NCBI GenBank assembly: GCA_937888435.1
Contig: CALAQS010000277.1
Location: 1 to 51,797 of the forward strand
Source: an uncultured Acidobacteriota bacterium
GTDB taxonomy: Bacteria; Acidobacteriota; Thermoanaerobaculia; UBA5066
Reading direction: 5' to 3'
Length of the DNA: 51,797 nucleotides
Shown: piece after piece, positions 1 to 18,551 of the stretch
Layout of the letters: every line of letters starts with the position of its first letter
Numbering within the stretch: position 1 is the stretch's first letter
The notes under the pieces: model-generated
Databases searched by the model: none
Told to the model about the DNA's origin: nothing
The model's input: only the letters and a program-made list of their open reading frames with translations
Made by a program: the position numbers and the translations under genes

Positions 1-82
1 GGATCGCGACGACGATGGGGACGCGCGCGACGTAGTCGTTCGAGAGGTTGTTCTCTCCATACGTGAAGACGATCCAGGCCAT
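1..82 (-). CDS. 5' part of a gene running off the window edge (MAWIVFTYGENNLSNDYVARVPIVVAI...), product unknown
   Basis: ATG at 82 on the minus strand, downstream of holB in the same orientation; frame stays open to the window edge with GC-rich third positions. Confidence 0.4.
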   Translation of the reverse strand, partial: MAWIVFTYGENNLSNDYVARVPIVVAI

Positions 83-156
83 TCGCGCGGGTGCGAGCAG
101 CGCGAGCGCGATCGCGAGGGCCTTCGCGCCTCGGGAAACGGACCGCTCGTCTCCGC

Positions 157-1104
157 TCACAGCCCGAGCGCGAACGCTTCCGTCGCGAGCTTCACGTTGC
201 GGCGCGAGTCCGTGAGGCTCGCGGCGAGGGCGAGAGCGCCGGACGCCGCGTCGAGGAGGTCGGCAGCCGGAGCCGTGCCAAGGCGCGCGAGGTCGGCGAA
301 GCGCTCGCGGAAGAGGATGTGGCGGCCGGCGGGATCGACGGGCGCAGCCGCGGCGTCGCGCAGGAGCTGCGCGAGGAGCTGGAGGCGGCGCACGGCCTCG
401 GGGCCGTCGTCGGCTCCGAGGAGCGTTCCTAAGGCGAGCGACCAGGACAAGGAGCGCGTGAGGAAAACCCCGGAGACGGCCTCGAGGAGCGCGTCGCGCG
501 TGGCGCGCGCACCGGCCACGTCCAGCTCGGCGGCTTCGTCCGCGTCGTGCGGCGCGAAGGCCGCGCGCGCCTCGGCTTCTTCCTCACCCATGCCGCGGCC
601 CCTCAGGGCGGCGGCCGTTTCTTCGCGCGTGGCGCCCGGGACGGGCCGGAGCGCGACGCGCGAGAGGATCGTGGACGGGAGGAGGCGCGGGCGCGTGGCG
701 GTGAGGATGAAGCGCGTCTTCGTGGGAGGCTCCTCGAGGATCTTCAGGAGCGCGCTGAAGGCCGCACTCTCCGTGCGGTCCACGTCGAGGAAGACGACGG
801 CGCGCCGCTGCGCCTCGTAGGGAAAGCGCGTCGCGTCGGCGGCGACCGCGCGCACGAGTGCGGTCGGCAGCGTCGTCTCCTTGCCGTCGGTCTCCTCGAA
901 CGGCGGGGGGTTGACGCGGCGCCGCCTCTCGGGAGCGACGACCATGAGGTCGGGATGCTCGCGCCGGAACACGCGGCGCGCGGCGGGAGATTCGGGGTCG
1001 AAGCCGGGTCCGCAGACGACCTCGGCCGCGGCCTCGATCGCCAGTGTTTCGAGTCGGCGGCTGCCCGGCCCGGAGAGGAGGACGACCGGAGCGCTTGCGC
1101 TCAT
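157..1104 (-). CDS. holB: DNA polymerase III delta-prime subunit (clamp loader), divergent
   Basis: HPDL motif, ALLKILEEPP and LLPSTILSRV motifs; 4-nt overlap with tmk, the usual tmk-holB order. Confidence 0.85.
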   Translation of the reverse strand: MSASAPVVLLSGPGSRRLETLAIEAAAEVVCGPGFDPESPAARRVFRREHPDLMVVAPERRRRVNPPPFEETDGKETTLPTALVRAVAADATRFPYEAQRRAVVFLDVDRTESAAFSALLKILEEPPTKTRFILTATRPRLLPSTILSRVALRPVPGATREETAAALRGRGMGEEEAEARAAFAPHDADEAAELDVAGARATRDALLEAVSGVFLTRSLSWSLALGTLLGADDGPEAVRRLQLLAQLLRDAAAAPVDPAGRHILFRERFADLARLGTAPAADLLDAASGALALAASLTDSRRNVKLATEAFALGL

Positions 1105-1772
1105 CGGCGCCTCGTCGCGCGCGGGCGGCGCGGGATGAAGAGGGCCTCGAGGTCTTTTTCGAGGCGTGCGAACACGGCGTCGGGCGTTCCGCTCGCGTCA
1201 AGCACGCGAAATCGGTGCGGCTCGCTCCGGGCACGGCGGCGATACGCGGTCCTCACGCGGCGGTGGAAAGCGATCTCCTCGCGCTCGAACTTGTCGATGC
1301 CGGCGCCGCCCCGCCGCGCGACGCGTGCGAGCGCGGTTTCGACGGGGCAATCGAAAAGATACGTGCGGTCGGGAACGCGAGGGCACCAGCGGCGGTGAAG
1401 CGCGTCGACGGCCGCTTCGCCGAGTCCGCGGCCGGCGCCCTGGTACGCGCGCGATGAGTCGATATATCGGTCGCACAGGACGTCCGTGCCCTCGGCGAGG
1501 GCCGGCTCGATCAGCTCGAGGACGTGCTGCCGCCGGTCGGCGACCATGAGGAGCAGCTCGGCGCCCGGCTCGACGTTCTCGCGCGCGTGGAGGAGGGCAT
1601 GGCGGAGACGCTGGCCGAGCGCCGTTCCGCCGGGCTCTCGGGTCGTCAAGACGACTCGCCCGCGAGCCGCGAGCCACTCTGCCGCACGATTCAACTGGGT
1701 GGTCTTGCCGCAGCCTTCGATCCCCTCGAAAGTCAGAAAAAGTCCACGGGTCACGACGCGGGATTCTCGCAC
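1101..1772 (-). CDS. tmk: Thymidylate (dTMP) kinase; true start may be GTG at 1754
   Basis: FLTFEGIEGCGKTT P-loop, TREPGGT, DRYIDSSRAYQG motifs. Confidence 0.96.
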   Translation of the reverse strand: MRESRVVTRGLFLTFEGIEGCGKTTQLNRAAEWLAARGRVVLTTREPGGTALGQRLRHALLHARENVEPGAELLLMVADRRQHVLELIEPALAEGTDVLCDRYIDSSRAYQGAGRGLGEAAVDALHRRWCPRVPDRTYLFDCPVETALARVARRGGAGIDKFEREEIAFHRRVRTAYRRRARSEPHRFRVLDASGTPDAVFARLEKDLEALFIPRRPRATRRR

Positions 1773-1831
1773 GCAGGTTCGGCGCCTGCCTCGGAACGAA
1801 GTGGCACGCCGTTCGTATACTGAGGCAGCGC

Positions 1832-4438
1832 ATGTCGGTTCTGACGCCGGACCCGAGCAGCCCGGAGGGCGCCGTCGGCGTAACCGGCCGCTCGCCGAGG
1901 CGCCTGCTCGTCTTCGTCGGGGTCCTCGCCTGCCTTCTTGCCGTCCTGTCCGTCGTGGACATGTTCATGGCGAAGGCCTACGACGGCGTCGTACCCGACC
2001 CGTACTCCGTGGGCGGCATCTTCGTCCGCGACCTCGTCCCCGGGGGCGCGGCCGAAAAGGCGGGTCTCAGGACCGGGGACACCGTGCTCGGCATCGGCCA
2101 CCACATGCTCAACAAGGCGGCCGAGGCGCCCGCCGAGCTGCGCCGCCACGGCGCGGGCGAGGCCGTGGACTACCTTGTCAGGCGCGGGGAGGACGTGTTC
2201 GAGACGAAGCTCATCCTCACGCCATTCCGTCTGGGTTCGGCGTTGTACTTCTACTTCGCGTTCCTCGGTCTCCTCTTCTTCGTCCTGGGGGCTTTCGTGA
2301 TCTCGCGGCGGGCGGACGACCCGGCCGTGCAGGTCTTCTACGTCCTGTGCATTCTCTTCATGCTCTTTTTCATCTGCCGGCTGCGTCCGTCCAGCTACTA
2401 CTGGATCGACTACGTCGTGCAGGTCGCCGGCACGCTCGCCCTGTTCCTTCTGCCGGCGGTATTTCTGCATTTTTTCCTCCTCTTCCCGAAGAAAAAGACG
2501 TTCCGGTTCGCCGACCGTGCACCCGGCGGAGCGCCCCCGGCGCCGTGGCTCTTCGCGCTCCAGCGTTTTCTCAATCGCTCGCCGCTGCTCCTGACTCTTC
2601 TGTACACCCTTCCGCCCGTCCTCTACGTTCTCCAGATGGCGGGCGCGAGAGGGGGCGGTCCGCGGCGGCTCATTTACGGCGCGCCCACGCTCAACTGGAT
2701 CCTTCTCGCGGACTACCTCATCCTCGGCCTCCTCGCGCTCGCGCACACGTGGTGGACGAGCGAAGACCGCGCGGCGCGCCGGCCGATCCTCGTCCTCCTG
2801 CTCGGCACCGTGGCCGGCATCGTGCCGTTCGTCGTCTTCGCCGTCTTTTTTCCGTCGCTCTTCCGCGAGGACCGGTATCTCGCGTGGGGCGTCGTCCCGA
2901 TGGCGCTCATTCCGCTCACGTTCGCGTATGCGATCGTCCGCTTCCGGCTCTTCGACGTCGAGGTCATCGTCCGCAAGTCGCTCGTGTACGCGATCCTGAC
3001 GGCCGTCGTCACGGGGTTCTACGCGCTCTGCGTCGTGGCGGGGAACGCGTTCGTCTCGACCGTCTCGTCGTCGACGCTGTTCTCGTCTCCCGCGTTCGCG
3101 TTCGGCTTCGGCCTCGTCGTCGTGCTTCTCTTCGATCCCCTGCGCAGGCGGATGCAGCGCGTCGTGGACCGCCTGTTCTTCCGCGACCGCGCGGACTTCC
3201 AGCAGGCGCTCCTGGACATGAGCCGCTCTGTCGTGTCGCAGCTCGAAAGGCCGAAGCTGCGGGCGCTCCTGACGTCGCGCACGGCCGATCTCCTGCGGCT
3301 CGAGAGCCTCGACCTCCTCCTGCCACGCGGCGAGGACGGGGCCTTCACGGACGGCTCGACCGGCGGTGGGGCCCTCCCCGCGCTTCCGATGGGGGCGGTG
3401 CTGCCCCGGCTCGTCCTCGAGAGGGGCGCTCCCGTGAGGCTCGCCGAGCTGGACGGCTGGATGCTCGACGCCGATTCCCGTGCGTTCGTGGCGGCGGCGA
3501 AGCGCCGGTTCGTCACGGTCGTCCTACCGCTCGCGACGCACGGCAAGCTCCTCGGGCTTCTCGCCGTCGGGCGCAAGCGCTCCGAGGAAGAGCTTTCCCG
3601 CGAGGACCTCGACCACTTGCTCACGATCGCGAATCAAGGCGCGCTCGGGCTCGAGGCCGCCGGCCTCCACGAGGAGCTCACGCGCCGGGCGGAGATGGAG
3701 CGCGATCTCGACATCGCGCGCGAGATCCAGACGAGCCTTTTTCCGCGCGAGCTGCCGCGCGTGCCGGGCGTGTCGTTCTTCGGCGTGAGCCGGCCGGCGC
3801 GCGTCGTGGGCGGCGACTTCTACGACTTCCTCGAGGTGGACGGCGACGTGCGCGGGGGCGGGCGACTCGGCCTCGTCGTGGGCGACGTGTCGGGCAAGTC
3901 GATCCCGGCTTCGCTCCTCATGGTCGCGGCCAAGGAGATCGTCTACGCCCGGGCGATGGCCGACCCCGATCCCGGCGTCGTGTTCCGCGAGGCGAATCGG
4001 CGCCTGTACGACATCAAGCGGCGGATGTTCGTGTCGCTCGCGTATTTCCTCCTCGACCAGAAGGCGCTCTCCCTCACCTATGCCTTCGGCGGCCAGCCAA
4101 CGCCCCTCCTCGTGCGCGCGGGCTCGGGCGTCGCGGTGGAAATTCCGGCACCCGCGAATCGCCTGCCTCTCGGCGCCTTCCGCGACGTTCCGTACGACAC
4201 CGTCACGTACTACCTCTCGCCCGGAGACCTTCTCCTCTTTTACACGGACGGCCTCAACGAGGCGATGTCCGCCGAAATGGCACCGTACGGGGACGAGAGG
4301 CTCAAGGCCTCGTTCGTCCGTCACGCAAAGCGCCCTCTGCCGGAGCTCGCCGACGAGCTTCTCGAGGACATCCGCCAGTTTACCCAGGACGCCGAGCAAT
4401 ACGACGACCAGACCTTCGTCCTGATGCGCATCGGGTGA
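1832..4438 (+). CDS. Membrane sensor phosphatase: N-terminal TM, PDZ-like domain, multi-TM region, GAF, SpoIIE/PP2C domain
   Basis: PDZ-like VPGGAAEKAGLRTGDTVLGI; several hydrophobic helices; PP2C motifs VGGDFYD, GDVSGK, YTDGLNEA, DDQT. Confidence 0.9.
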   Translation: MSVLTPDPSSPEGAVGVTGRSPRRLLVFVGVLACLLAVLSVVDMFMAKAYDGVVPDPYSVGGIFVRDLVPGGAAEKAGLRTGDTVLGIGHHMLNKAAEAPAELRRHGAGEAVDYLVRRGEDVFETKLILTPFRLGSALYFYFAFLGLLFFVLGAFVISRRADDPAVQVFYVLCILFMLFFICRLRPSSYYWIDYVVQVAGTLALFLLPAVFLHFFLLFPKKKTFRFADRAPGGAPPAPWLFALQRFLNRSPLLLTLLYTLPPVLYVLQMAGARGGGPRRLIYGAPTLNWILLADYLILGLLALAHTWWTSEDRAARRPILVLLLGTVAGIVPFVVFAVFFPSLFREDRYLAWGVVPMALIPLTFAYAIVRFRLFDVEVIVRKSLVYAILTAVVTGFYALCVVAGNAFVSTVSSSTLFSSPAFAFGFGLVVVLLFDPLRRRMQRVVDRLFFRDRADFQQALLDMSRSVVSQLERPKLRALLTSRTADLLRLESLDLLLPRGEDGAFTDGSTGGGALPALPMGAVLPRLVLERGAPVRLAELDGWMLDADSRAFVAAAKRRFVTVVLPLATHGKLLGLLAVGRKRSEEELSREDLDHLLTIANQGALGLEAAGLHEELTRRAEMERDLDIAREIQTSLFPRELPRVPGVSFFGVSRPARVVGGDFYDFLEVDGDVRGGGRLGLVVGDVSGKSIPASLLMVAAKEIVYARAMADPDPGVVFREANRRLYDIKRRMFVSLAYFLLDQKALSLTYAFGGQPTPLLVRAGSGVAVEIPAPANRLPLGAFRDVPYDTVTYYLSPGDLLLFYTDGLNEAMSAEMAPYGDERLKASFVRHAKRPLPELADELLEDIRQFTQDAEQYDDQTFVLMRIG

Positions 4439-4499
4439 AAACTCCGGCGCCGCGAGCGCGTATCATCAAAGGGCCGCTCGTGCGGCCGTCGGAGGCTGC

Positions 4500-5945
4500 A
4501 TGTCGCTCGCGTCCCGTCGCTCCCTGCGCCCGCTCACCCTCGCCCTCGTGGTGACGGGTCTCGTGGCGGCCGGGACCGCCGCGGCGTTCTTCCTCAGGAG
4601 CCGCCGCGACGTCACGACGTCCTCCGAGCAGGCCCGGAAGGCCTACAACGAGGCACGCGAGAACGACCTGAAGATGTACGACCGCGAGGCGATCTCCGGG
4701 TACGCGACGGCGCTGCAGTACGACCCACATTTCGTCATGGCGACGCTGCGGCTCGCCGACAAGATCCGGGGGCGCGACCCAGACCGGGCGAACTCCCTCC
4801 TCGCGTCGGCGGCGCGCTCGAGGGAAGAGATCACCCCCCGCGAGCAGCTCATGCTGCGGATCTACGAGGAGCGCTGGGGGCGGCGCGACACCGCGACCCT
4901 CGGCGCGCTCTACGACGAGTACCTGCGTCGATTCCCGGACGATCCCGAAGGCTATCTGATGCGTTGCTACTTTCTGGCGAGCCAGAAGCGCACCGCCGAG
5001 GCCCTCGCGGAATACGAGCGGCTTCTCACCGTGAATCCGAACTACGCCATCGCCTACAACACGCTCGGCTACGCCAGCGCGGCGCGCGGCGACTTCGCGA
5101 AGGCCGAGGATTACCTCAAGCGCTACCGCTACCTCGCGCCGGACCAGGCGAACCCTCTCGACTCGCTCGGCGAGCTCTACGCGCTCATCGGACGGTACGA
5201 CGAAGCCGAGGACGTCCTCAAGAAGGCGCTCGCCATAAAGAGCGACTTCTTTCCCGCTTACGGCCACCTCGGGACCGTGGAGATCGGCCGGGGAAATCCG
5301 GCGAAGGCCGCTCAGTACTTTCTCAAGGCGTCGGACGAAGCCACCCAGCCCCTCGTACGCCTCGATTTCCGTTTCTACGCTTCAATCGCGCTCCTCGACG
5401 CGGGCGACGGTGCGGCCGCGCGCAAGGAGAGGGATCTCTTCGTAGCGGAAGCGGCCGGCCTCCCGCCCGGATCGGAGGCGGCGCAGCTCGGCGCCAAGAT
5501 CGCATTTTATCAGGCGGCGTTTCTCGCGATCAAGGGCGAGACGACGGGACTCGACGCCCTGCTGGTGTCCGCGGCTGTCCCCTACGAGAAAGAGCCGGAC
5601 GCCGAGAAGAAGGGCGTGGAGCAAGGCGTCGCATTGGTTCGCGGAGTCGCGGCGGCCCGGTCCGGCCGCTGCGAGGAGGCGGTGGCGCTCCTCCGGGGGA
5701 TCCAGCAGCCGGAAGGGGAGTTCGGCCTCGGAGGAACGGAGTACTACCCGGGAAAGGACTTTGGCCGCGTCCTGGCGGCCAGCTGCCTCCGCGACCTGGG
5801 ACGCAACGAGGAGGCGGAGAAAGAGCTCGAGCCGCTTCTGAAGAGGAACCCGCACTTCGCGCCCGCCGTCGCAGTCGTCGCGCGCCTGGCGCCCGGGAAG
5901 CCAGCCGCCGAAGCCCGGGCCGCCCGCGCTTCGGGCGCACCCTGA
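4500..5945 (+). CDS. Membrane-anchored tetratricopeptide-repeat protein
   Basis: N-terminal hydrophobic anchor, then TPR-like repeats (NPNYAIAYNTLGY, PDQANPLDSLGELY, FFPAYGHLG). Confidence 0.85.
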   Translation: MSLASRRSLRPLTLALVVTGLVAAGTAAAFFLRSRRDVTTSSEQARKAYNEARENDLKMYDREAISGYATALQYDPHFVMATLRLADKIRGRDPDRANSLLASAARSREEITPREQLMLRIYEERWGRRDTATLGALYDEYLRRFPDDPEGYLMRCYFLASQKRTAEALAEYERLLTVNPNYAIAYNTLGYASAARGDFAKAEDYLKRYRYLAPDQANPLDSLGELYALIGRYDEAEDVLKKALAIKSDFFPAYGHLGTVEIGRGNPAKAAQYFLKASDEATQPLVRLDFRFYASIALLDAGDGAAARKERDLFVAEAAGLPPGSEAAQLGAKIAFYQAAFLAIKGETTGLDALLVSAAVPYEKEPDAEKKGVEQGVALVRGVAAARSGRCEEAVALLRGIQQPEGEFGLGGTEYYPGKDFGRVLAASCLRDLGRNEEAEKELEPLLKRNPHFAPAVAVVARLAPGKPAAEARAARASGAP

Positions 5946-5952
5946 GCCGTCG

Positions 5953-7442
<1,490 letters not shown>

Positions 7443-7446
<4 letters not shown>

Positions 7447-9704
7447 GGAGACTCCTTCCGGATCAGCCTCCCCAGGGCGACCCGATCCGGCGCCAGGAGC
7501 TCGGCGATGCGCTCGGGGTTGACGTCGGCGACGATGATCTGGCCGACTTCGGTCGTGACCTCGCGGAAGATGCCGTGGACCTTCATCTTCGCGGCCTGAT
7601 ACTGGTTGTCCTCGGTGGGGGAGACGTAGTGCACCGAGTCGATCCGGAAGCGGTGCACCAGGAAGAGGTGGACGAGGGTCATCAGACGCTTCTTGCGGAG
7701 CGCCACCGCGAAGGTGTTCTGGTCGCGGACCGAGAGGATGCTGCGGCCGCGCCGGTCGTGGATGGGGGCGAAGATGACGTTGGCGTGCTTCTCGTCCCCG
7801 CTGCCGTAGATGCCGAGCTCGAGGAGCTCCGAGCCGGCGCGGTGCGGCCGCAACTGGACGCGGAGCGTACCGGGGAGGCCGTAGTGCTGCGTCCACATCG
7901 CCAGCCACTCCTCGAGGAGCTTCTTCGGCACCTCGGTCTGCACGAGGTGCTGGTGCTGGGTCGAGCCCTTGCCCATCGCCATGGTGGTCGCCGTGCGCCC
8001 CGACGAGGCGGCCAGTGCGGCATCCGCCCGCGGCCCGCCGACGAGGGTCTGCGGCGTGCGGTACGGCGACTCGACCATGCGGAGCTTCCGCTGCAAGCGG
8101 GCGAGAGCGAGCATGCCGTCCTGCTTGAGGGCGGTCGCCAGCTCCTCGGCGGCGAGACCGTCGATCTGGTGGCCGCCATAGGTGACGAAGTTGAAAACGA
8201 AGCCCAGCTTGGCGAGCTCCTCGGGAAATCGACGCATCTCCTCGTCACTCATGCCGGTGGTGTCCCAGCTGAACGACGGCGAGAGGTTGTAGGCGAGCAT
8301 CTTGTCCGGAAACTCGGCGTGGATCGCCTCGGCGAACTTGCGGACGTCGGAGAGGTCGGCGGTCTTCGTCTCCATCCACAGCAGGTCGGTGAAGGGTGCC
8401 GCGGCGAGCGATTTTGCGATGGCGTACGGGACGCCGCCGCGGACCTGGTAGAAGCCCTCCGAAGTCCTGGCCAGCTCGCAGTCCCAGCCGACGTCGGCGC
8501 CGAGAGCGCGCGCCTTCTCGCGGGCGGCGTAGAACGAGGCGCGCGCGGCGAACCGCCGCCACTCGTCGGGGCTCATCTCCAGCGGCTCGCCCTCGCTGGC
8601 GCGGAAGTCGAGCACCTCGGCGACTGCCTCGCCGTACGTCTCGAGGCCGGCCTCGTCCTCCCACACCTCGAGGAAGCGGGAGGCGACCCCGTCGAAGGTG
8701 GCGTCGAGAGAGATCTCCTTCCCGTCCCGGTATGCCGCTGCGGCCTCCGCGGCCTGGCGCAGGAGGCCCTTGCGCTCGAGCCAGTCGGCGGCTGCGGTGT
8801 ACTCGCCTTCGGGGATGGCGTAGAGCAGATGGCCGTTGAGGTCGCGGACGCCCATCTCGTAAAAGCGCCGGATCAGCGCCAGGTAGCACGCCTTGTAGGC
8901 CGGCACTTCGAGGTTGGTGGCGCCGAGGAGGAACGGCTGGTCGCGCTCGTCGGCGCGGCCCTCGAGCAGGTTGGCCGCCTCGGCGTCCGTGCGGGCCACG
9001 ATGATGCCGGCGACCCCCATGACGTCGAGCTGGAAGCGGGCGGTGTTCAGCCGCTTGTTCTGCTCGTCCTGCCCGACCAGCACCTTGCCGCCCTGATGGC
9101 CGCACTTCTTGGTGCCCGGGCGCTGGTCTTCGATGTGGTAGCCCGGCACGCCGGACTCCACGAAGCGGCGGATCAGGTTGCGCACGTGCGGGTCACCGCC
9201 GTGGCCGGTATCGGCGTCGGCGATGATGAACGGCCGGAAGTCGTGGGCCGGCGCGGCGGCGCGCTGCGCCTCGGTCATGCGCGAGCGCAGGTACTGCTGG
9301 TTGCGGTCGGCGGTGAGCAGGGCACGCACCAGCGTGGCGGCTTCGTCGGGCACCTGGCTGAGCGGGTAGCTCGCGAGATCGGGTCCCGGGTCTTCGCTCG
9401 TTCCGCCTCTGGCGGAGATCGCCCAGCCACCCAGGTAAATCCCTTCGATCCCCATCCGCTTGATGGTCACGGCCTGCCCCGGCGAGTAGGGGCCGAAGGT
9501 GGTGATGCTCTTCCTCTGCGCGAAGAGCTGGCGCAGGCGGTCGTAAAACGCCGCGGCGGCCTCGCGCGCGACCGTGTAGTCGTGAGCGATGGTGCCGCGT
9601 TGCTCCACGACCTGGCGCGCGGTGTAGAGGCGGACGATCCCCGCGAAGCGGGGGCTGTCGAACCACCGCTGTGTGGCGGCGATTTCCTCTTCGAACGAGC
9701 TCAT
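7443..9704 (-). CDS. aceA: Isocitrate lyase, long ICL2-like form with C-terminal extension
   Basis: [16 protein letters not shown], catalytic [25 protein letters not shown]; 753 aa. Confidence 0.93.
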
Positions 9705-9923
9705 GGCGGGGCCCCCTATGACAGCCCTACAGTTTAGCGCCGACCGAACGGGCCGTCGGTTTTCTCGGCGACGGCTCTTTGTTTGATGGATGGCGCCGAC
9801 ACGGCCTCAAGAACCGAATTCCCGCTCTGAGGCGTTTTTGCACTTTGTAATGTTTTGTCCCATGAAAGGTAAGTAGTTTACTTAGAAGAGTAATATGTGT
9901 TTCTTCGGCGACAAGACCATTGA

Positions 9924-9940
9924 TGTGACATAGTGGCTCA
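9924..9940. promoter_or_regulatory. Candidate enhancer (UAS) for a Fis-type HTH activator
   Basis: Imperfect palindrome TGTGACA-TAG-TGGCTCA about 100-120 bp upstream of the -24 box, in an AT-rich intergenic region. Confidence 0.4.
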
Positions 9941-9989
9941 TCGCTGGCTTGGACTGCTCGCTCACGCCACTTTCTAAGAAATCTAATCT

Positions 9990-10002
9990 TTCCAACAGCT
10001 TA
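9990..10002 (+). promoter_or_regulatory. Candidate IHF site
   Basis: TTCCAACAGCTTA matches the CAAnnnnTTR core of WATCAANNNNTTR, follows an AT-rich tract, and lies between the candidate UAS and the sigma54 promoter. Confidence 0.35.
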
Positions 10003-10041
10003 CCTGTACTTCAGCCCCCTCGAAATTTGCCTGGGACGATG

Positions 10042-10056
10042 TGGCCCGGCACTTGC
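10042..10056 (+). promoter_or_regulatory. Sigma54 (RpoN) -24/-12 promoter
   Basis: TGGCCCGGCACTTGC = TGGC-N7-TTGC with exact GG-N10-GC spacing; followed by SD GGAGG (10073-10077) and ATG 10085. Confidence 0.75.
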
Positions 10057-10084
10057 GATGCAGACCCCAACCGGAGGCACCCAG

Positions 10085-10342
10085 ATGTTCAGCGAGGGCG
10101 GAATCAAGGCTGAGGCGACCCGCGTGTCGACGCGCACGTCGTCCGTGCCCGGGCGCTCCTCTTTTTTCGCCGCGTCCTCTTTTTCCGCATCTTTACCAGC
10201 GTCTCTCCCCGCATCGATCCGCACTTCACGCGTCGTCATGTCGCTCCTTCTCGCCGAAGCCGCCGCCTTCGCCCTCGCTGCCGCGTCGGGTAAGATCCCT
10301 GCGTTCCTCTTCATAGCGGTTCGCGCGCTCCTGACGTTCTAG
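10085..10342 (+). CDS. Small (85 aa) hypothetical protein, Ser/Ala-rich middle and hydrophobic C-terminus; first gene after the sigma54 promoter
   Basis: GGAGG 7 nt before ATG 10085; same orientation as the downstream operon; C-terminus VVMSLLLAEAAAFALAAASGKIPAFLFIAVRALLTF. Confidence 0.55.
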   Translation: MFSEGGIKAEATRVSTRTSSVPGRSSFFAASSFSASLPASLPASIRTSRVVMSLLLAEAAAFALAAASGKIPAFLFIAVRALLTF

Positions 10343-10370
10343 GGCTCTGAGAGGGGATTGCCGAAAAGCG

Positions 10371-10808
10371 ATGTCGTCGGTCGAGCGCCGCGAGGTGCAC
10401 ATGACCATTCCGGTTGCGCCGGAAATGGAGATCGCCGCCACGGCGCAGGTCTCGGCGCTCGGCGAGTGGATGGAGATGGGCCGCGACAAGATCGACGAGG
10501 TGAAGATGGCCGTCGTCGAAGCCTGCATCAACGCGTTCGAGCACAGCGCGACGCCCGACCGCAAGGTAGAGCTCGCCTTCCGCGTGGGTGCCGAGGAGGG
10601 CGGCCGGGGCGCCTATCTCGAGGTCGACGTCACAGACGCGGGCCATGGGTTTGATCCGACCCGGCTCAAGACCCCCGAAATCGCCGCCGCGCTGAGGTCC
10701 AGCCGGAAGCGGGGCTGGGGCATCAAGATCATCGAGAGCCTGATGGACGACGTCCGGATCGAGAGCGGCGAGCACGGCACCCGCATCGTCATGCGCAAGT
10801 ATCGATAA
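10371..10808 (+). CDS. RsbW/SpoIIAB-like anti-sigma factor serine kinase (GHKL fold)
   Basis: N box EACINAFEH, G1 DAGHGFDP, G2 RGWGIKIIESLMDDV, GTRIVM. Confidence 0.92.
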   Translation: MSSVERREVHMTIPVAPEMEIAATAQVSALGEWMEMGRDKIDEVKMAVVEACINAFEHSATPDRKVELAFRVGAEEGGRGAYLEVDVTDAGHGFDPTRLKTPEIAAALRSSRKRGWGIKIIESLMDDVRIESGEHGTRIVMRKYR

Positions 10809-10823
10809 GGTATAAAGGACCGA

Positions 10824-11186
10824 ATGAGCGAGACCCTGAAAGTGGTCGTGGACCGGCCGGACGTCAACGTCGCCGTTCTCCGCACGGACGGTTACATCAA
10901 CAACACCGGAGGCGAGGAAATCGCCAAGGAGGCTTACGCTCTCCTGGGGTCGGGCGTGAATCGCCTGCTCCTCGACCTCGAGAAGACGAAGATCGTCAAT
11001 TCGATCGGCATCTCCATTCTCATCGAGATTCTGGAGAAGCTGCTCGATCAGGGGGGAAAGCTCGCTTTCTGCCGGCTGACGCCCACGATCGAGAAGACCT
11101 TCCAGATCATGGGGCTGGCCCAATATGCGCGCATCTTCTCCGCTCCCGAGCCCGCCCTCGCCTGGCTCCGGGGCGAGACCGAGTAG
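10824..11186 (+). CDS. STAS-domain anti-anti-sigma factor (RsbV/SpoIIAA-like)
   Basis: LLLDLEKTKIVNSIGISIL with the phosphoacceptor-type Ser; GGKLAFC...FQIMGL; 120 aa; next to the kinase. Confidence 0.92.
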   Translation: MSETLKVVVDRPDVNVAVLRTDGYINNTGGEEIAKEAYALLGSGVNRLLLDLEKTKIVNSIGISILIEILEKLLDQGGKLAFCRLTPTIEKTFQIMGLAQYARIFSAPEPALAWLRGETE

Positions 11187-12795
11187 CGCGGCGATTCCCG
11201 GGCCTTCCGCCTCCGCGGCGGACCCGAACGCCGCGATTCTCGCGGCGCACCAGAGGCTCGCGGAGCTCGACCCGTTTTCCGACCGCGAGCGGCTCTTCGA
11301 CGGGATCCTCGCCGCTCTCCTGACGGCGGCTCACTCCGAGCGCGGCGTCCTCGTGGATCCCCTGCAGGCGTCGAGCTCCGCGCGTCCGGGCGTAGAGCCG
11401 CCGGCCGATCCGCCGATCACGATCCCGCTCACCGCGCGGGACGAGACGCTCGCGCTTCTCGTGCTCGAAAAGCCCCCCTTAGAGCCGGTCGGCTTCGCGT
11501 CGGTCACCGCACACGCGGCGCGCCTCCTCGATTCTGTGCGGATGGCCGACAAGGTGCAGAAGGCGGACTTCGAGCTGAAGTACAGGGTCTGGGAGCTGCA
11601 GAGTCTGTACGACGTCGGGCTCTCCATCGCGGGCACCCTCGATTTCGAGTTGCTCGCCGAGGACATTCTTTACAAGTCCATCTCGCTCCTCAATGCGCGC
11701 ACGGGGACGCTCATCGTGTGCGACCGCGCGGCGGACGGCCCGGTCACCGTACGCCATCTCGGCGAGCCGCTTCTCGACGGCGTGGCCGCGCGGCTGCTTC
11801 CCGCGACGGTGCTCCGCTGCAACACGCTCGCCGAGCGGGTGGGACTCCTCGTGCACGCCCCTGCCGAGAAGCTCCTCGCCGTGCCGATCCTCGCCGAGGG
11901 ACGCTGGCTCGGCGTGCTCGTCGTGGCCGACAAGGAGAATCGCGACGGCTCGATCGACGACTTCACCGAATCCGACGAGCGCGTGGCGTCGCTCTTCGCG
12001 AATCAGGCCGCGATCGCGCTCGAGAACGCGCGCCTGCACCGCGAGGCGGTCGAGAAGGAGAAGATGGAGCGGGAGATCGAGCTCGCCGCCTCCATCCAGA
12101 AGACCATTCTCCCCGAGACGCTCCCGGACGTACCGGGGCTCCTCGTGGCCGGCGGGAACCGGCCGACGAAGCAGGTCGGGGGCGATTACTTCGACGTCTA
12201 CCCGCTCGCGGACGGGCGCACGGCGCTCTGCGTCGCCGACGTCTCGGGCAAGGGCGTGCCCGCGGCGCTCCTCGTGTCCACGGTCCACGCCTGCCTCCAT
12301 CTTCTCGTGCCGGACGGCGCCTCCGACCTGCCCGCTCTCGTGGCGCGCGTGAACCGCCATCTCGTGGGCTTCTCCTCGACCCGCAAGTTCGCGACCCTGT
12401 TCATCGCCGTCTACGATCCCGCGAAAGGGACGCTCACGTACGTGAACGCGGGCCACAACCCCGGGCTCTGGGTCTCGCCGGGGGGCGTGACGCTGCTGCC
12501 GAGCGGCGGCGTGCCCGTCGGAATGATGCCGGGCGTCACGCACACGCAGGCCGTGATCCAGATCGCGCCCGGCGACACGCTTCTCCTGTACTCCGACGGA
12601 ATCACCGAAGCGCTGAACGGCGCCGACGAGGAGTTCGGCATGGAGCGTCTCACCGCGTTGGCCGTCGAGGGGCGCGCGCAGCCTCCCGCCGAGCTTTCCC
12701 GGCGCATCTTCGGCGCGGTGAGCGACTTCACGACCGGCGTCGCGCAGTACGACGACCAGACGGTGCTCATCGCGCGGGTCGTGTCGCTGGCGTGA
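11125..12795 (+). CDS. GAF-PP2C (RsbU-like) serine phosphatase; start codon uncertain
   Basis: GAF ending NQAAIALENARLH; VGGDYFD, ADVSGKG, YVNAGHNP, YSDGITEA, DDQT. Confidence 0.92.
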   Translation: MRASSPLPSPPSPGSGARPSSAAIPGPSASAADPNAAILAAHQRLAELDPFSDRERLFDGILAALLTAAHSERGVLVDPLQASSSARPGVEPPADPPITIPLTARDETLALLVLEKPPLEPVGFASVTAHAARLLDSVRMADKVQKADFELKYRVWELQSLYDVGLSIAGTLDFELLAEDILYKSISLLNARTGTLIVCDRAADGPVTVRHLGEPLLDGVAARLLPATVLRCNTLAERVGLLVHAPAEKLLAVPILAEGRWLGVLVVADKENRDGSIDDFTESDERVASLFANQAAIALENARLHREAVEKEKMEREIELAASIQKTILPETLPDVPGLLVAGGNRPTKQVGGDYFDVYPLADGRTALCVADVSGKGVPAALLVSTVHACLHLLVPDGASDLPALVARVNRHLVGFSSTRKFATLFIAVYDPAKGTLTYVNAGHNPGLWVSPGGVTLLPSGGVPVGMMPGVTHTQAVIQIAPGDTLLLYSDGITEALNGADEEFGMERLTALAVEGRAQPPAELSRRIFGAVSDFTTGVAQYDDQTVLIARVVSLA

Positions 12796-14156
12796 GGCTT
12801 CGCGGAGGAACCCTCGTCGTGGTGGCGCTCGGAGTCGCGGCCTGCACGTTCTCGCGGGATATCACGATCCTGCCTCACCGGCTCGTAAGGTCTTTTCCGA
12901 TCGGGCTCGTGAGCTCCTACAACGCCGAAGAGCAGCTCCAACGCGGGTACATCCCCGAGGTCTCCGAGTTTCTCGCCGGACCGGGCGGCCAAAGCCTCGA
13001 CGCGGTCCGCCTCGACCGGCTGGCCGGCCAGGTGCTTCTCGAGCGCGGTGACTTTCACGGCGCCGCGCCGCGGCTCGAACGCGCTCTGGCGGGCACGGGC
13101 CGCGCGTCTGACCGCGCGGACCTCGCGTGGCTCCTGTCGCAGGCCGCGTACTGGGAAGGAAACTTCCCCTCCGCGGGCCGCTGGGGGCGCGTGGCGCAGC
13201 GCGAGGGCAAACGCGTGCCGGACGGCTGGCTCGTCTTCATGGAGTCGCAGGCCGCCCGCGTGCTCTACGGCGGCGCGGCAGCGGGAGAACGCCTCTCGCT
13301 CCCCGTCGGGTTCGGGCGGCCAAATCTCCTGCGCGTCGCCGTGCGCGTGAACGGGCGTCCCGCGGAGGAGATGGTCCTCGACTCGGGCGCGTCGCTGTCT
13401 CTGCTGACGGAGAGCGCGGCGGCCCGCCTCGGCGTGACGTTCGTCCCGGGCGCCACGGCCATGGCGAAGGGTCTGCACGAAGCGGACCTCCCGATGCGCC
13501 TCGGCTGGGTCGATTCCATGCGCGTCGGCGATCTCACGCTGACGGACGTCCCGGTCGGCGTCCTGCCGGACGGCACGCTCACGTTCGAGACGGCACCGTC
13601 CGGAGTCTTCCGCCTGAACGGAGTCCTCGGCGTCCATCTCATGAAGGAATTCGACTGGAGAATCGAGTTCAAAGACCGCCTCCTCCAGGCGCGACGGCTC
13701 GACCGGCGCATCCTGCGCGGCTCGAAGGACCAGAATCTCTTTTTCCGGCGGATGAAACCCATGGTGCGCGCCTCGCTCAACGGGCAGCCGTGGTCGCTCT
13801 TCCTCCTCGACACCGGGTCGGAGCCGTCGATGATCACGCGCGGCGGGCTGCGAAAGACGCACCTCTTCGAACCGGAGGCGGCGTACCCGATCACCCTCGA
13901 GGGGATCGGACAGTCGCGCGTGTCGTGGTCCAAGATCTCGAACGTGACGGTGGGTGTCTCGGCCTACATGGTCCGGTTCAAGGACATCGTCGTGAAGGAA
14001 GAGGCGGACGGGATCGAGGACGGCATCCTCGGCGCGTCGTTTCTTTCCTCGTTCGACGTGGAGATCCGGTTCGGCGCGATGACGCTCGTGCTCGAAAACC
14101 CGTTGGAGCGCCACCTGCGCCAGACGAGGGCGGCCCCGCAGGAGATCGCACGATAG
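12792..14156 (+). CDS. Putative lipoprotein with two retropepsin-like aspartyl protease domains
   Basis: GTG overlapping the upstream TGA (GTGA); lipobox-like LGVAAC; TPR-like N-part; catalytic MVLDSGAS and FLLDTGSE, with closing motifs GVLG and DGILG. Confidence 0.82.
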   Translation: MRLRGGTLVVVALGVAACTFSRDITILPHRLVRSFPIGLVSSYNAEEQLQRGYIPEVSEFLAGPGGQSLDAVRLDRLAGQVLLERGDFHGAAPRLERALAGTGRASDRADLAWLLSQAAYWEGNFPSAGRWGRVAQREGKRVPDGWLVFMESQAARVLYGGAAAGERLSLPVGFGRPNLLRVAVRVNGRPAEEMVLDSGASLSLLTESAAARLGVTFVPGATAMAKGLHEADLPMRLGWVDSMRVGDLTLTDVPVGVLPDGTLTFETAPSGVFRLNGVLGVHLMKEFDWRIEFKDRLLQARRLDRRILRGSKDQNLFFRRMKPMVRASLNGQPWSLFLLDTGSEPSMITRGGLRKTHLFEPEAAYPITLEGIGQSRVSWSKISNVTVGVSAYMVRFKDIVVKEEADGIEDGILGASFLSSFDVEIRFGAMTLVLENPLERHLRQTRAAPQEIAR

Positions 14157-14157
14157 A

Positions 14158-14925
14158 ATGAGGTGCGTGCAGGAGCGCCATCCACGGGGAGCGGCGGCGG
14201 CCGCCGCGCTCGCGGCAATGGTCGTCCTCCACGCGGGAGGCTGCCAGGGTCCGGCCGATCCCATGCAGAAGAAGCGGAACGACATGGTCGAGCGCCAGAT
14301 CGCGGCGCGCGGGATTCGGGATCCGCGCGTCCTCGAAGCGATGCGCACCGTGCCCCGCCACCTCTTCGTCCCGCTCGCGGAGGAAGCGTCCGCGTACGAC
14401 GACCGGCCGCTTCCCATCGGGAGCGGCCAGACGATCTCGCAGCCTTACGTCGTGGCCTTCATGGCCGAGCAGCTTCGCCTGACCGGGAAAGAGAAGGTCC
14501 TCGAGATCGGGACGGGCTCGGGCTACTCGACGGCGATCCTCGCGGCCCTGGCCACGAAAGTCTTCTCGATCGAGATCCGCCCCGAGCTGTCGCGCCAGGC
14601 GAAGGAGCACCTCGAGAAGCTGGGCGTGAAGAACGTCGAGCTGAAGGCGGCCGACGGCTACCGCGGCTGGCCCGAGGAAGCCCCGTTCGACGCGATTCTC
14701 GTCACCGCCGCTCCGGAGCGGATCCCGCCCCCTCTCCTCGAGCAGCTCGCCCCGGAAGGGCGGATGGTCATCCCGGTCGGCGCGTTCTACCAGGAGCTGA
14801 AAGTGATCAAGCGGCAGGGCGGCGGCTACTCGGAGAAAAGCGTCCTGCCCGTGCGGTTCGTGCCGTTCGTGGGTGAGGCCGAGGGCGCCCCGCCCCCGGC
14901 CCGCGACCCCGGAGCCTCGCGATGA
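14158..14925 (+). CDS. pcm: Protein-L-isoaspartate O-methyltransferase
   Basis: VPRHLFVP, GQTISQPY, VLEIGTGSGY, APFDAILVTAA, VRFVP. Confidence 0.95.
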   Translation: MRCVQERHPRGAAAAAALAAMVVLHAGGCQGPADPMQKKRNDMVERQIAARGIRDPRVLEAMRTVPRHLFVPLAEEASAYDDRPLPIGSGQTISQPYVVAFMAEQLRLTGKEKVLEIGTGSGYSTAILAALATKVFSIEIRPELSRQAKEHLEKLGVKNVELKAADGYRGWPEEAPFDAILVTAAPERIPPPLLEQLAPEGRMVIPVGAFYQELKVIKRQGGGYSEKSVLPVRFVPFVGEAEGAPPPARDPGASR

Positions 14926-15200
14926 GCGCCGGGACGGCGCTCACGAATCCCACGGTCCTTCTCGAACGCGTGCCCGTAAGGGAGCGCGGCGCGTCGCTGA
15001 CGCGCTCGGCCTGGCGCATCGCGGTGACGGCGAATGAAGGCACGGGCACGATCGTCCGCCTCGAGGCGTCGGACGGCGCGGTTCATTTCCGCGGCGACGG
15101 CCTGTTTCTCGGCTGGGGCGCGGACGAGATGGGCTCCGCCTGGGACGTGCTCGCGCGCTCCGACGCCCCGCCCGAGCCCGAGCTCATGCAGCTCGGGTGA
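14922..15200 (+). CDS. Hypothetical 92-aa protein translationally coupled to pcm
   Basis: ATGA overlap with the pcm stop; codon usage like neighbouring genes. Confidence 0.6.
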   Translation: MSAGTALTNPTVLLERVPVRERGASLTRSAWRIAVTANEGTGTIVRLEASDGAVHFRGDGLFLGWGADEMGSAWDVLARSDAPPEPELMQLG

Positions 15201-15235
15201 GATGACAGTCAAACGTTTTTTCTCTTGGAGGACTC

Positions 15236-16018
15236 ATGCGATTTTCGACCCTCACTCTCACGGCTTTCGTACTCGCCGCCGGCTCGGCCGCGGCCTCCGA
15301 CGACCTGACGATCGTCTCGAAGCACACGCACGACGGCAAACCGGCGGGCACGTCCACGAGCTATCTCACCAGCGACCACGTGCGGATGGCCAGTGAAGAA
15401 GGACACGAGACGATTGTCGATTTGAAAACCGGTGTGATGACGATGCTGGACGGCAAGAAGAAGACCTACTACACCGTCACGAAGCAGGACATGGAACAGC
15501 TCGCGGCCAAGATGAAGGAGAGGATGAACGACCCGGAGACGAAGAAGGCCATGGAGATGATGGCCAGCATGAGCGGCTCGATGGCGACGTCGTTCGACGT
15601 GAAGAAGACGGGGGCGACGCGGAAGATCGCCGGGTACGGCTGCGAGGAATGGGCGATCACGATGGGCACGCTCTCCACGATCAAGGAGTGCGTCTCGACC
15701 GAGCTGCAGTACCCCGCCCACGCCTGGGACGCCTACAAGGACTTCGCCGAGAGCATGAAGAACATGATGAGCGCCTTCGGACCCATGGCGAAGAGCGGCG
15801 CCGAGCTGGCCGAGAAGATGAAGAACATGAAGGGATTTCCCCTCGGCTCCTCGACGGTCGTGGACGTCATGGGTCACAAGACCACCACGGAGAGCGAAGT
15901 GACGGAGGTCCGGAAGGGCTCGATTCCGGCATCCGCATGGGAGATTCCGGCCGGCTACACGAAGGTCGAGAACCCCATGCTGAAGGCATTCGAAGGCCAC
16001 GGCCACTCTCATCGTTGA
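15236..16018 (+). CDS. Secreted Met-rich protein, probably DUF4412-like
   Basis: SD GGAGG, signal peptide ending AAA-S, KTGATRKIAGYGCEEW and EIPAGYTKV motifs. Confidence 0.7.
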   Translation: MRFSTLTLTAFVLAAGSAAASDDLTIVSKHTHDGKPAGTSTSYLTSDHVRMASEEGHETIVDLKTGVMTMLDGKKKTYYTVTKQDMEQLAAKMKERMNDPETKKAMEMMASMSGSMATSFDVKKTGATRKIAGYGCEEWAITMGTLSTIKECVSTELQYPAHAWDAYKDFAESMKNMMSAFGPMAKSGAELAEKMKNMKGFPLGSSTVVDVMGHKTTTESEVTEVRKGSIPASAWEIPAGYTKVENPMLKAFEGHGHSHR

Positions 16019-16077
16019 TCGGGCTCGACCCCGACGGAGGCCCGTACGGCTGATCAGAGGCGCTGACGGGGGCGGGC

Positions 16078-16878
16078 CTAAATCCCTGCCCAGCCCGGCT
16101 CCAGGCGCGTCCAGCCCTCCTCGATCGCCCACAGATCCATCGCGAGCGAGACGAGGTCGTCCACCTCGGGCAGCGGCCGCGCGTCGAGCGTGAGGTCGAG
16201 CGACTTGACGTAGCGGCGGCACGTCTCGCAGGCCTCGATGCGAACGTTCTTGTGCACGTCGCTCTGGAAGCTCGGCAGCTTCGTGGGATCTTCCTCCTGG
16301 CAGGATGGGCAGCGGATTCGGTTGAAGGCCCACTCCGTCCCGCAGAGCCCGCAGACGAGGTAGCGCGCGGCGCCGTTGGAGTCGGGCAGCTCCTTGCGGA
16401 AGGAGACGATCGGGGCGGAGCCGCAGGCGGGGCAGTGGCCTTCGTGCCGGGGCCGGTCGGCCGCGATGCCCGCGCGAGCGAGGACCTCGGCGAACGGGCG
16501 AAGGAACGCCCGCGACAGATAGTCCTCCAGCGCATCGCGTCCGCCTTCCCAGTAGACGCGGAGCCGGGTGGCGGCGGTCGTCGGGTCGTCACTCGCGCGA
16601 GTCTCCGCGGCCTCCGCCAGCTCCGGCGGCCCGTCGGCGGCGGCGAAAGAAAGCAGAGGGGGCAGCAGATCGGCGATGCGCGGCAGGTCGGCCGCCCCGC
16701 CCGAGAACGGCGCGTCGGCGTGCCGCGCCGAGATGGCCGCGGCAAGACGCCCCTGCAGGCGGAAGAGCTTCGCGGCGAAGACGAGGGGCTCGGCGACGGC
16801 AGGGGCCGACGCGGCGAGCAGCTCGGCGCGCGCAGTACGCTTTTCGAATTGATCGGAGACGTTCATCGAGGTCGCCAC
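16078..16878 (-). CDS. fdhE: Formate dehydrogenase accessory protein FdhE; start may be ATG 16866
   Basis: CPACGSAP, RYLVCGLCGTEW, RIRCPSC, CETCRRYVK, DDLVSLAMD; last gene of the fdh operon. Confidence 0.92.
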   Translation of the reverse strand: MATSMNVSDQFEKRTARAELLAASAPAVAEPLVFAAKLFRLQGRLAAAISARHADAPFSGGAADLPRIADLLPPLLSFAAADGPPELAEAAETRASDDPTTAATRLRVYWEGGRDALEDYLSRAFLRPFAEVLARAGIAADRPRHEGHCPACGSAPIVSFRKELPDSNGAARYLVCGLCGTEWAFNRIRCPSCQEEDPTKLPSFQSDVHKNVRIEACETCRRYVKSLDLTLDARPLPEVDDLVSLAMDLWAIEEGWTRLEPGWAGI

Positions 16879-16941
16879 GGCCCTTGGCTCTTTCTGCGAC
16901 AGAGTGCCGCAAAAAACGAAAAAGACAACCAGGACCCGAGG

Positions 16942-17631
16942 CTACTTCTGTCCCGTCACTTCCCGGTACCAGCGCGGGTGGTGCAGTCGTGCCCAGGCCT
17001 TCGTGACGGTCCCACGCACCATGGATCCGAAGGTGCCCGGCTCGGCGGCCGTGCCGAGGTAGATGTGCCAGATGATCGCGGCCGAGAACAGGATGAACGT
17101 GACGTCATGGAGCAGAATCGAAAGCTCGCGAACGAGCTGAGAGAAGCTGAGCGGGTACCACATGACGACGCCAGACACGAGGAGTCCGAGCGCGCCGAGC
17201 GAAACGGCGAAAAAGAAAAGCTTCTGGCCCCCGTTGTACTTCCCGACTTCCGAGTCGTCGCCCTGATACTTGAGGTATTTCCAGGCCCGCGGGCCGAGCC
17301 AGTCCTTTTCGTTCGGCTCGAGCTTCATGTCGCCCAACCAGTGGAAAAACTGGACGGTGGAGATCACCGTGAAGACGATGCCCGCCCATGGGTGAATGAA
17401 CCGGCAGACCGAGAGGCCCCCGAAGAGGTCCGCCATCCAGCGGAAAAAGGGAGTCCAGATCGGCATCCCGGTGAGCACCGAGACGAAGAAGCTGAGAGCG
17501 ACGCTCCAGTGGATGAGGCGCGACGAGAGGCGGTGCCGGACGATCTCGTTTCCGACGGCGACGTCTTCACGATCCCGGGCGACGGTTACCGCGTCGTCCA
17601 ACGCACGGTCGCGGATCGGGACAGCGCTCAT
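16942..17631 (-). CDS. fdnI: Formate dehydrogenase gamma subunit (cytochrome b556)
   Basis: RLIHW, FIHPWAG, GKYNGGQK, WHIY, WARLHHPRWY; four TM helices. Confidence 0.93.
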   Translation of the reverse strand: MSAVPIRDRALDDAVTVARDREDVAVGNEIVRHRLSSRLIHWSVALSFFVSVLTGMPIWTPFFRWMADLFGGLSVCRFIHPWAGIVFTVISTVQFFHWLGDMKLEPNEKDWLGPRAWKYLKYQGDDSEVGKYNGGQKLFFFAVSLGALGLLVSGVVMWYPLSFSQLVRELSILLHDVTFILFSAAIIWHIYLGTAAEPGTFGSMVRGTVTKAWARLHHPRWYREVTGQK

Positions 17632-17653
17632 GGTGTTTTCTTCCTCTCCCCGC

Positions 17654-18538: not shown

Positions 18539-18551
18539 GATCGTCTCCCCC

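Follow-up and report, generated by a model that had tools for sequence, protein, structure and literature searches.

What does a partner switch act on when no sigma factor is encoded with it? In the Bacillus systems RsbU/RsbV/RsbW-sigB and SpoIIE/SpoIIAA/SpoIIAB-sigF a GHKL kinase, its STAS substrate and SpoIIE-family PP2C inputs are joined to a sigma factor. The question is raised by a gene cluster at positions 1832-15200 of contig CALAQS010000277.1, from an uncultured acidobacterium of the class Thermoanaerobaculia, in which a kinase, a STAS protein and a PP2C follow a putative sigma-54 enhancer-binding protein (hereafter the activator) and a predicted sigma-54 promoter. The window that we analysed is this entire contig (C277, 51.8 kb); the source genome has 3.7 Mb and a completeness of 99.95%. 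Many sigma-less partner switches are known, their outputs are mostly unknown, and the cluster is a concrete candidate for a new output class.

Comparison with related genomes points to a class-wide regulatory module of Thermoanaerobaculia, with a predicted core of activator, enhancer, sigma-54 promoter, small peptide, kinase, STAS protein and GAF-PP2C phosphatase. That the activator and sigma-54 would drive the kinase operon is well supported by the conserved promoter, the enhancer-like sites, the adjacency of the activator gene and the presence of rpoN. That the partner switch in turn gates the activity of the activator is our preferred but tentative reading, to which we assign a probability of roughly 40%. 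All the evidence on the cluster is comparative and, since the relatives are not independent of each other, the counts given throughout should be read as conservation and not as statistics. The features on which the argument turns are the following.

1832-4438, + strand: membrane PDZ-GAF-PP2C sensor phosphatase (Pfam SpoIIE E 2e-43, PDZ 5e-06, GAF 3.5e-04)
4500-5945, + strand: TPR protein with an N-terminal hydrophobic anchor (many TPR families matched)
5953-7446, + strand: putative enhancer-binding protein (Sigma54_activat E 2e-64, GAF_2 1.6e-10, AAA_lid_14 8e-24, HTH_8 1e-12)
9850-9945, + strand: candidate enhancer (upstream activating sites), with TGTCCC at 9856-9861 and TGTGACATAGTGGCTCA at 9924-9940
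10042-10056, + strand: predicted sigma-54 -24/-12 promoter TGGCCCGGCACTTGC, TGG-N8-TTGC being conserved across loci
10085-10342, + strand: small membrane peptide of 85 aa, first gene of the operon (conserved open reading frame, no Pfam or NCBIfam family)
10371-10808, + strand: RsbW/SpoIIAB-type GHKL serine kinase (HATPase_c_2 E 7e-22)
10824-11186, + strand: STAS protein with N59-S60-I61-G62 (STAS E 1.6e-11)
11125-12795, + strand: cytoplasmic GAF-PP2C phosphatase (SpoIIE E 1.3e-47, GAF_2 E 4.5e-10, GAF E 8e-10)

The switch operon and its predicted promoter

Domains were called with Pfam, and further models were taken from NCBIfam and scored against their own cut-offs. The genes named in the original prediction, a description of this stretch made from its letters before any database search, all lie on the + strand and were confirmed by Pfam. 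The parts of a partner switch are readable in full, namely a GHKL kinase, a single-domain STAS protein with its serine and phosphatases of the SpoIIE type; a cognate sigma-70-family gene accompanying them was not found. The cluster had been predicted to be devoid of sigma factor genes, and indeed Sigma70_r2 has no match on the cluster contig, all 15 matches in the genome falling on other contigs; the related loci described below likewise yielded no sigma factor with the queries used. Kinase residues E50, N54, D89, G91, G93, G115 and G117, located in ATP-binding boxes that we take to be N, G1 and G2, are invariant in 45 sequences, and the NCBIfam RsbW and SpoIIAB models match the protein below their cut-offs. 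The serine singled out by the original prediction within the NSIG motif of the STAS protein proved invariant, as did the whole of N59, S60, I61 and G62 (48/48 sequences; mean column identity, 68%), and S60 presumably corresponds to Ser58 of SpoIIAA, judging by motif position. Both PP2Cs belong to the SpoIIE family and carry readable GGD..D, DVSGKG/S, DG..E and DDQT motifs; the start codon of the GAF-PP2C gene is uncertain, its ATG at 11125 overlapping the STAS gene by 62 nt. The second phosphatase, PDZ-PP2C, has about ten hydrophobic segments in a crude hydropathy scan, with the PDZ domain (approximately residues 59-125) between the first and the second, as would be expected if PDZ were periplasmic and the GAF-PP2C part cytoplasmic. 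Its gene is followed by the TPR gene after a gap of 62 nt, and the latter by the activator gene after 8 nt.

Linkage was followed in 80 related Thermoanaerobaculia loci retrieved via the kinase (99% to 59% identity), counting only those with sufficient flank for each gene, hence the denominators below 80. The activator gene lies upstream of the kinase and on the same strand in 72/72 of these close loci, while the STAS gene (78/78), GAF-PP2C (71/71) and the TPR gene (66/66) are always linked and PDZ-PP2C precedes the activator in 58/60. The minus-strand isocitrate lyase gene aceA (7443-9704), which in the window separates activator and promoter, occupies that place in only 9/73 loci, all of them nearest relatives, and is therefore a recent lineage-specific insertion outside the system. 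Thus, the expectation that the activator and rsb blocks stay together without aceA holds in the close loci, with the core extending class-wide, and the predicted order of activator and then promoter stands, direct adjacency in the window excepted. PDZ-PP2C, TPR protein, activator and rsb block had been expected to travel with an aspartyl protease as well, which the close set does not bear out (24/64).

The core was traced further in 27 additional loci of the class (kinase identity, 34-63%), 25 of which have a full-length activator gene directly upstream. In a phylum sample of 401 genomes, 38 of them other genomes of the class, a kinase homologue (E <= 1e-10) is present in 37/38 class genomes and a DNA pattern for the unusual GVATGV loop of the activator, discussed below, in 36/38, the genome lacking both (G314) being 98% complete; these phylum tallies take in one unpublished genome (G024). 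PDZ-PP2C and the long TPR gene were not found in most of the 27 wider loci, the activator being preceded in distant ones by a 115-aa secreted TPR-like gene in some cases and by uvrA in others.

Taken by itself, the promoter string TGGCCCGGCACTTGC is at chance level, as two-mismatch matches to the consensus in the window amount to 10 observed for 10.0 expected. Across the 80 close loci, TGG-N8-TTGC recurs without exception 150-460 nt 5' of the kinase (twice in L018, once in each of the other 79), for a background of 0.054 per kb per strand in the same DNA, and conservation is confined to TGGC, one G and CTTGC with drifting flanks. It is this cross-locus conservation between drifting flanks that makes the promoter credible, unlike the single-sequence search, and the pattern is the signature expected of a sigma-54 -24/-12 promoter, in line with the placement of such a promoter ahead of the small peptide in the original prediction. 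In the wider class the strict string was found in 24/27 loci, with GG-N10-GC near-variants in two more. The genome holds just 65 TGGC-N7-TTGC strings on both strands, and its rpoN is located away from the cluster on contig C315 (Sigma54_DBD, 215 bits).

Upstream of the promoter, G[TG]GACA/TGTC[AC]C words cluster at about 115 and 205 nt in 104 loci, reaching 1.31 per locus against 0.16 in shuffled sequence, an approximately eightfold excess; some form dyads, as in TGTGGCGAATTGTCACA, and together they make candidate enhancer sites. A genome-wide regulon scan for TGGC-N7-TTGC with TGTGACA/TGTCACA 60-240 nt 5' retained 2/65 sites, one of them the cluster operon and the other a weak candidate, the scan being crude and unable to exclude further targets. 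Every promoter-bearing locus also holds, between promoter and kinase, a small open reading frame whose product has a single hydrophobic helix and ends in a conserved manner, with the pattern SGKIPxxLxxxxRALLTF (carried by the window copy), SDRLPxVLIRSLQLFLRF or IPxWIKxxAxLFLAF, and for this reason we consider the small peptide a real first gene. Its originally proposed start at 10058 gives way to 10085, which has GGAGG in front and is likelier, the start remaining uncertain.

The GVATGV activator and its relatives

The activator had been described as a sigma-54 enhancer-binding protein, and its domains agree with this, including the AAA+ sigma-54 interaction domain and the helix-turn-helix (HTH), but not its L1 loop, which reads GVATGV in place of the canonical GAFTGA, with three positions changed and the phenylalanine among them. 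The genome has 17 activator-type AAA+ genes with a readable loop, and this variant is unique to the one in the cluster: 15 of the other 16 read G[AS][FY]T[GD]A and one is motif-less. GVATGV is kept in 72/74 orthologues, one of the two exceptions reading as a stretch of N and the other being a divergent copy, and in 25/25 linked orthologues of the wider class. Thermoanaerobaculia thus offer a large natural set of sigma-54 activators lacking the supposedly essential loop phenylalanine, each beside a conserved sigma-54 promoter, which makes the engagement of loop and sigma-54 directly testable.

The loop was searched for in the phylum with a degenerate DNA pattern for FGIExGVATGV, a reversed control pattern giving no matches, and was encountered outside the class in 13 genomes. 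A further 17 GVATGV activators of the phylum (L137-L153), typed with Pfam on 10 proteins and with tblastn on the remainder, are divided between an FHA type (10 proteins) and a GAF type (7 proteins), named after the domain they carry; a Hanks-type kinase lies within the fetched stretch for 7 of the 10 FHA-type proteins. The orthologue in genome G165, which is unlinked from the switch, also adjoins a Hanks kinase. A tblastn search of the activator against plasmids (2111 records) returned generic activators and was uninformative. In the literature, our search for GVATGV led to a sole relevant paper, in which Kazakov et al. (2015; PMC4641369) report this loop in DVUA0100 of Desulfovibrio vulgaris Hildenborough; the part of that text dealing with the protein argues that it is still activating, on the grounds that sigma-54 promoters are co-localised with it in its type III secretion cluster. 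As read from the record of plasmid pDV1 (L158 26112-27839), the DVUA0100 loop is identical to that of the cluster activator, and the gene is followed in one string by a 124-aa hypothetical gene and by a dCache-HAMP-SpoIIE phosphatase. DVUA0100 differs in its N-terminus, which is low-complexity or coiled coil without GAF, and in its location inside the type III secretion cluster; neither kinase nor STAS annotation was found around it in 50 kb of the plasmid record. Altogether, the GVATGV loop appears to mark a clade of activators repeatedly adjoining serine/threonine phospho-signalling genes.

Target of the switch

Compared with the Bacillus switches, the cluster shares the STAS serine at the equivalent place and an operon that would be driven by the very system it controls; it differs in the absence of a sigma-70-family gene from operon and contig, in the order kinase-STAS-PP2C, in the sigma-54 promoter and in having two GAF-bearing PP2Cs, one with a PDZ predicted to be periplasmic. 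NifL-NifA provides a precedent for a GHKL-domain protein inhibiting a GAF-AAA+-HTH activator, by binding and not by phosphotransfer, and NifA is the best NCBIfam model for the activator (356 bits, below the 529 cut-off); however, NifL is a large PAS protein and not an RsbW-type kinase, and the system has neither STAS nor PP2C. The PrsK/PrsR/PrsT proteins of PEP-CTERM/XrtA systems resemble the upstream genes in joining a multi-pass GAF membrane sensor, a sigma-54 activator and a TPR protein. All three matches are nonetheless far under the equivalog cut-offs (49 against 300 bits for PrsK in the transmembrane and GAF part of PDZ-PP2C, 84 against 312 for PrsT in the TPR protein, 351 against 503 for PrsR in the activator), and here the sensor ends in PP2C and the activator begins with GAF.

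Non-sigma outputs of partner switches are represented by the Hsb and Sia systems of Pseudomonas, which act on FlgM, a diguanylate cyclase or RpoS, and for which we know of no sigma-54 involvement, and by SypA of Vibrio fischeri, thought to act downstream of transcription. HsbR/HsbA and SiaABCD are like the cluster in combining PP2C, kinase, small phospho-protein and a non-sigma output, in the part of PMC6482189 that treats them; SiaA model matches in the cluster are weak (42-51 bits, cut-off 700). The syp locus, in the abstracts of PMC3610818 and PMC4517449, contains the sigma-54 activator SypG, the STAS protein SypA and the kinase/PP2C SypE, that is, a sigma-less STAS/kinase/phosphatase pair in a locus transcribed via a sigma-54 activator. 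By the same abstracts, SypG is a receiver-domain response regulator, SypE a kinase-receiver-PP2C fusion and the cargo polysaccharide-related, with no GAF activator or GVATGV loop mentioned. Together with DVUA0100, as presented in the consulted part of PMC4641369, syp is the closest described arrangement. In a review on STAS proteins (PMC8256260) the terms sigma-54, RpoN, NtrC and enhancer are all absent from the text, and the literature searched contained no partner switch joined to an enhancer-binding protein, in accordance with the original prediction that no characterised case was known; it is on that search that novelty stands. The kinase, STAS protein, PP2Cs, activator and PCM of the cluster belong to known families, and their combination with a sigma-54 promoter and a GVATGV activator is not previously described, the switch being locked, class-wide, to such a promoter and to an activator without a receiver domain.

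From what is known of the protein families, the kinase would phosphorylate the STAS protein on Ser60 and the two PP2Cs, the membrane PDZ-PP2C and the cytoplasmic GAF-PP2C, would reverse this phosphorylation; PDZ-PP2C, whose gene shares an operon with that of the activator, presumably responds to a signal from the periplasm. The phosphorylation state of the switch would then set the activity of the activator, either because kinase or STAS protein binds it or because it is phosphorylated directly, and this is the weakest step of the scheme. Sigma-54-dependent expression of the switch and gating of the activator would together complete a circuit of autoregulation comparable to the one in the sigB operon, except that the role of the sigma factor would fall to an enhancer-binding protein. 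We favour this gating because the activator gene has a sensor PP2C gene in its operon both here and in Desulfovibrio, because the upstream genes form a trio weakly alike to PrsK/PrsT/PrsR with PP2C substituted for the histidine kinase and GAF for the receiver, and because the GVATGV clade is tied to phospho-signalling; the finding that the scan of the own genome reveals no second promoter with the enhancer motif, except for one weak candidate, was also counted as support. If true, this would be the first partner switch acting on sigma-54 instead of sigma-70-family transcription, with PDZ-PP2C in the position of a histidine kinase. Taken one step further, the GVATGV activators would make up a clade of sigma-54 enhancer-binding proteins for serine/threonine phospho-signalling in three flavours, i.e. 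FHA domains with Hanks kinases, sensor PP2Cs in Desulfovibrio and the RsbW/STAS/PP2C switch in Thermoanaerobaculia, whose output would be the activator; this broader scheme we regard as doubtful.

Several observations weigh against gating of the activator by the switch. No result supports a contact of the activator with kinase or STAS protein, and the adjacency of the activator gene is fully explained by plain transcriptional control. A complex prediction with two kinase copies and activator residues 1-455 (45-row alignments) scored 0.02 and 0.00, the mark being 0.32, and speaks neither for nor against binding. The loop phenylalanine was reportedly found necessary by mutagenesis of other activators such as PspF, and with GVATGV lacking it the activator function itself is a matter of comparative evidence. 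The activator gene of two genomes (G357 and G165) lies on a different contig from the kinase, the promoter being retained. Outside the class, a kinase homologue (E <= 1e-10) occurs in 0/13 of the genomes with the GVATGV pattern, and the seven GAF-type GVATGV activators of the phylum have no kinase, phosphatase or STAS neighbour with the queries used. Conversely, in 13 loci from other classes (kinase identity, 35-50%) kinase and STAS genes precede a single PP2C-domain gene or a pair of them, and neither an activator nor a sigma-54-type promoter lies upstream in any of them (0/13), which argues that the module worked before meeting the activator and had another output there.

These last modules are also the starting point of an explanation in which the chain stays open: the activator would sense a signal of its own through GAF and turn on the operon, and the switch would act on a target encoded elsewhere, be it a group-2-like sigma factor on contig C351, an ECF sigma factor or a non-sigma protein as in the cases of HsbA, SiaC and SypA. 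Same-family kinase-STAS-PP2C modules without activator in other classes and the unlinked activator in two genomes suit it well, as do sigma-less switches with unlinked targets described in the consulted parts of PMC6482189 and PMC4517449. So does the supply of sigma factors in the genome, whose 15 Sigma70_r2 matches include the 295-aa protein on C351, with regions 1.2-4 and encoded beside dnaK and a MerR-family gene, which is the only non-primary sigma of the genome with region 3. However, no SigB/F/G-type sigma was found, the C351 protein scoring 118 bits with the NCBIfam model for a cut-off of 234, and its own contig holds a second pair of kinase (353-aa frame) and STAS protein (234-aa frame) 30 kb from the sigma gene. 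The C351 locations are L156 3671-4558 and L157 3338-4737. An open chain would moreover leave unexplained why, here as well as in Desulfovibrio, the activator shares its operon with a sensor PP2C. We hold it to be only slightly less probable than gating of the activator.

Far less probable is a switch with no transcription-factor target, acting post-translationally on the products of its own operon or at the membrane in envelope repair, with the kinase or STAS protein controlling the small peptide, PDZ-PP2C or else how the lipoprotein hydrolase and PCM are exported or act. Throughout the class, the small membrane peptide is indeed conserved as the first gene, with the kinase gene next in order, a pcm gene with a lipoprotein signal is linked in 64/64 close loci, and the conservation of the STAS protein is unusually high (68%), as expected of a protein with several partners; yet in the majority of the other families of the class the stretch contains neither pcm nor hydrolase, and gene order is the whole link between peptide and kinase. 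To our knowledge, no partner switch works on membrane or lipoprotein products of its own operon, which also counts against it. Finally, we give little credence to the idea that the GVATGV protein is a repressor, a poisoning subunit or the partner of another polymerase form and that the promoter is fired by one of the 15 canonical-loop activators of the genome, as the departure from GAFTGA at three positions, phenylalanine included, might suggest, because the loop is invariant class-wide and recurs in other phyla, always in a full-length AAA+ protein with intact HTH, because the gene lies directly upstream of the conserved promoter in 72/72 and 25/27 loci, and because DVUA0100 was judged activating from its sigma-54 promoters in the part of Kazakov et al. 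concerned with it (PMC4641369).

Cargo genes and flanking features

The gene inserted upstream of the operon and those that follow GAF-PP2C are listed here.

7443-9704, - strand: long-form isocitrate lyase, aceA, 753 aa (Pfam ICL E 1.7e-115)
12792-14156, + strand: lipoprotein with a TPR region, two retropepsin-like domains and a lipobox (Asp_protease_2 E 2.9e-21, two stretches)
14158-14925, + strand: protein-L-isoaspartate O-methyltransferase, pcm, with a lipoprotein-type signal …LHAGGC (PCMT E 2e-62)
14922-15200, + strand: small open reading frame of 92 aa, its start overlapping the pcm stop (no Pfam or NCBIfam match)

Packing is tight in this part of the cluster: the protease begins with GTG at 12792, overlapping the PP2C stop, pcm starts 1 nt past the protease stop and the last reading frame overlaps the stop of pcm. 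The protease, whose retropepsin-like motifs are DSG and DTG, behaves as variable cargo. It is absent from L028 and L072, where pcm directly follows PP2C, and in L050 (12463-14136, + strand), a locus of sister order, a 557-aa exported Amidohydro_3 protein takes its place between GAF-PP2C and pcm, so that the cargo beside pcm can be viewed as a swappable hydrolase. The pcm product is placed among the methyltransferases by NF001453 (249 bits, above the 188 cut-off). A Cys after a hydrophobic stretch is also present in the four further pcm N-termini examined (L028, L030, L041 and L072), and an enzyme exported by virtue of this lipoprotein signal would need a methyl donor outside the cytoplasm; a literature search on exported PCM retrieved nothing relevant among the papers listed. 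A second PCM paralogue is encoded at G000:C147:9241-9846.

The lineage cargo, a lipoprotein PCM with a lipoprotein protease or amidohydrolase, hints at a regulated handling of damaged envelope proteins. The envelope or protein-damage output proposed by the original prediction fits this lineage, in which pcm is linked in 64/64 close loci, and does not extend to the wider class, where a pcm match was found in the fetched stretch of 8/27 loci (in one case on the opposite strand); even the close set has the protease in just 24/64 loci. The 92-aa reading frame has tblastn matches in closer relatives only. A terminator scan 3' of it gave a single weak site, located inside the frame itself, and Rfam had no match over window positions 1-20000.

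Some minor features flank these genes. The aceA gene runs divergently from the same intergenic region as the enhancer-like sites. Between these sites and the promoter, an inverted repeat TAGTTTACTTAGAA / TTCTAAGAAATCTA is located at 9874-9887 and 9972-9985, and may be the site of a bending protein or of a second regulator; CTTAGAA and TTCTAAGAAA (CCAAGAAA in two) are seen again in L003, L009, L014 and L021. The idea of a second sigma-54 promoter at TGGCAC (1802-1817), 15 nt ahead of the PDZ-PP2C start, was dismissed, since this string lacks GC at -12 and a relaxed form of the pattern occurs in only 13/56 loci. A conserved CGTATACTG, about 15 nt 5' of the same start and implying a very short leader, looks like a sigma-70-type -10 element. 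In the stretch 1101-1830 of the window, a gene runs divergently from PDZ-PP2C, which we take to be thymidylate kinase-like from an N-terminal motif, and after which comes holB.

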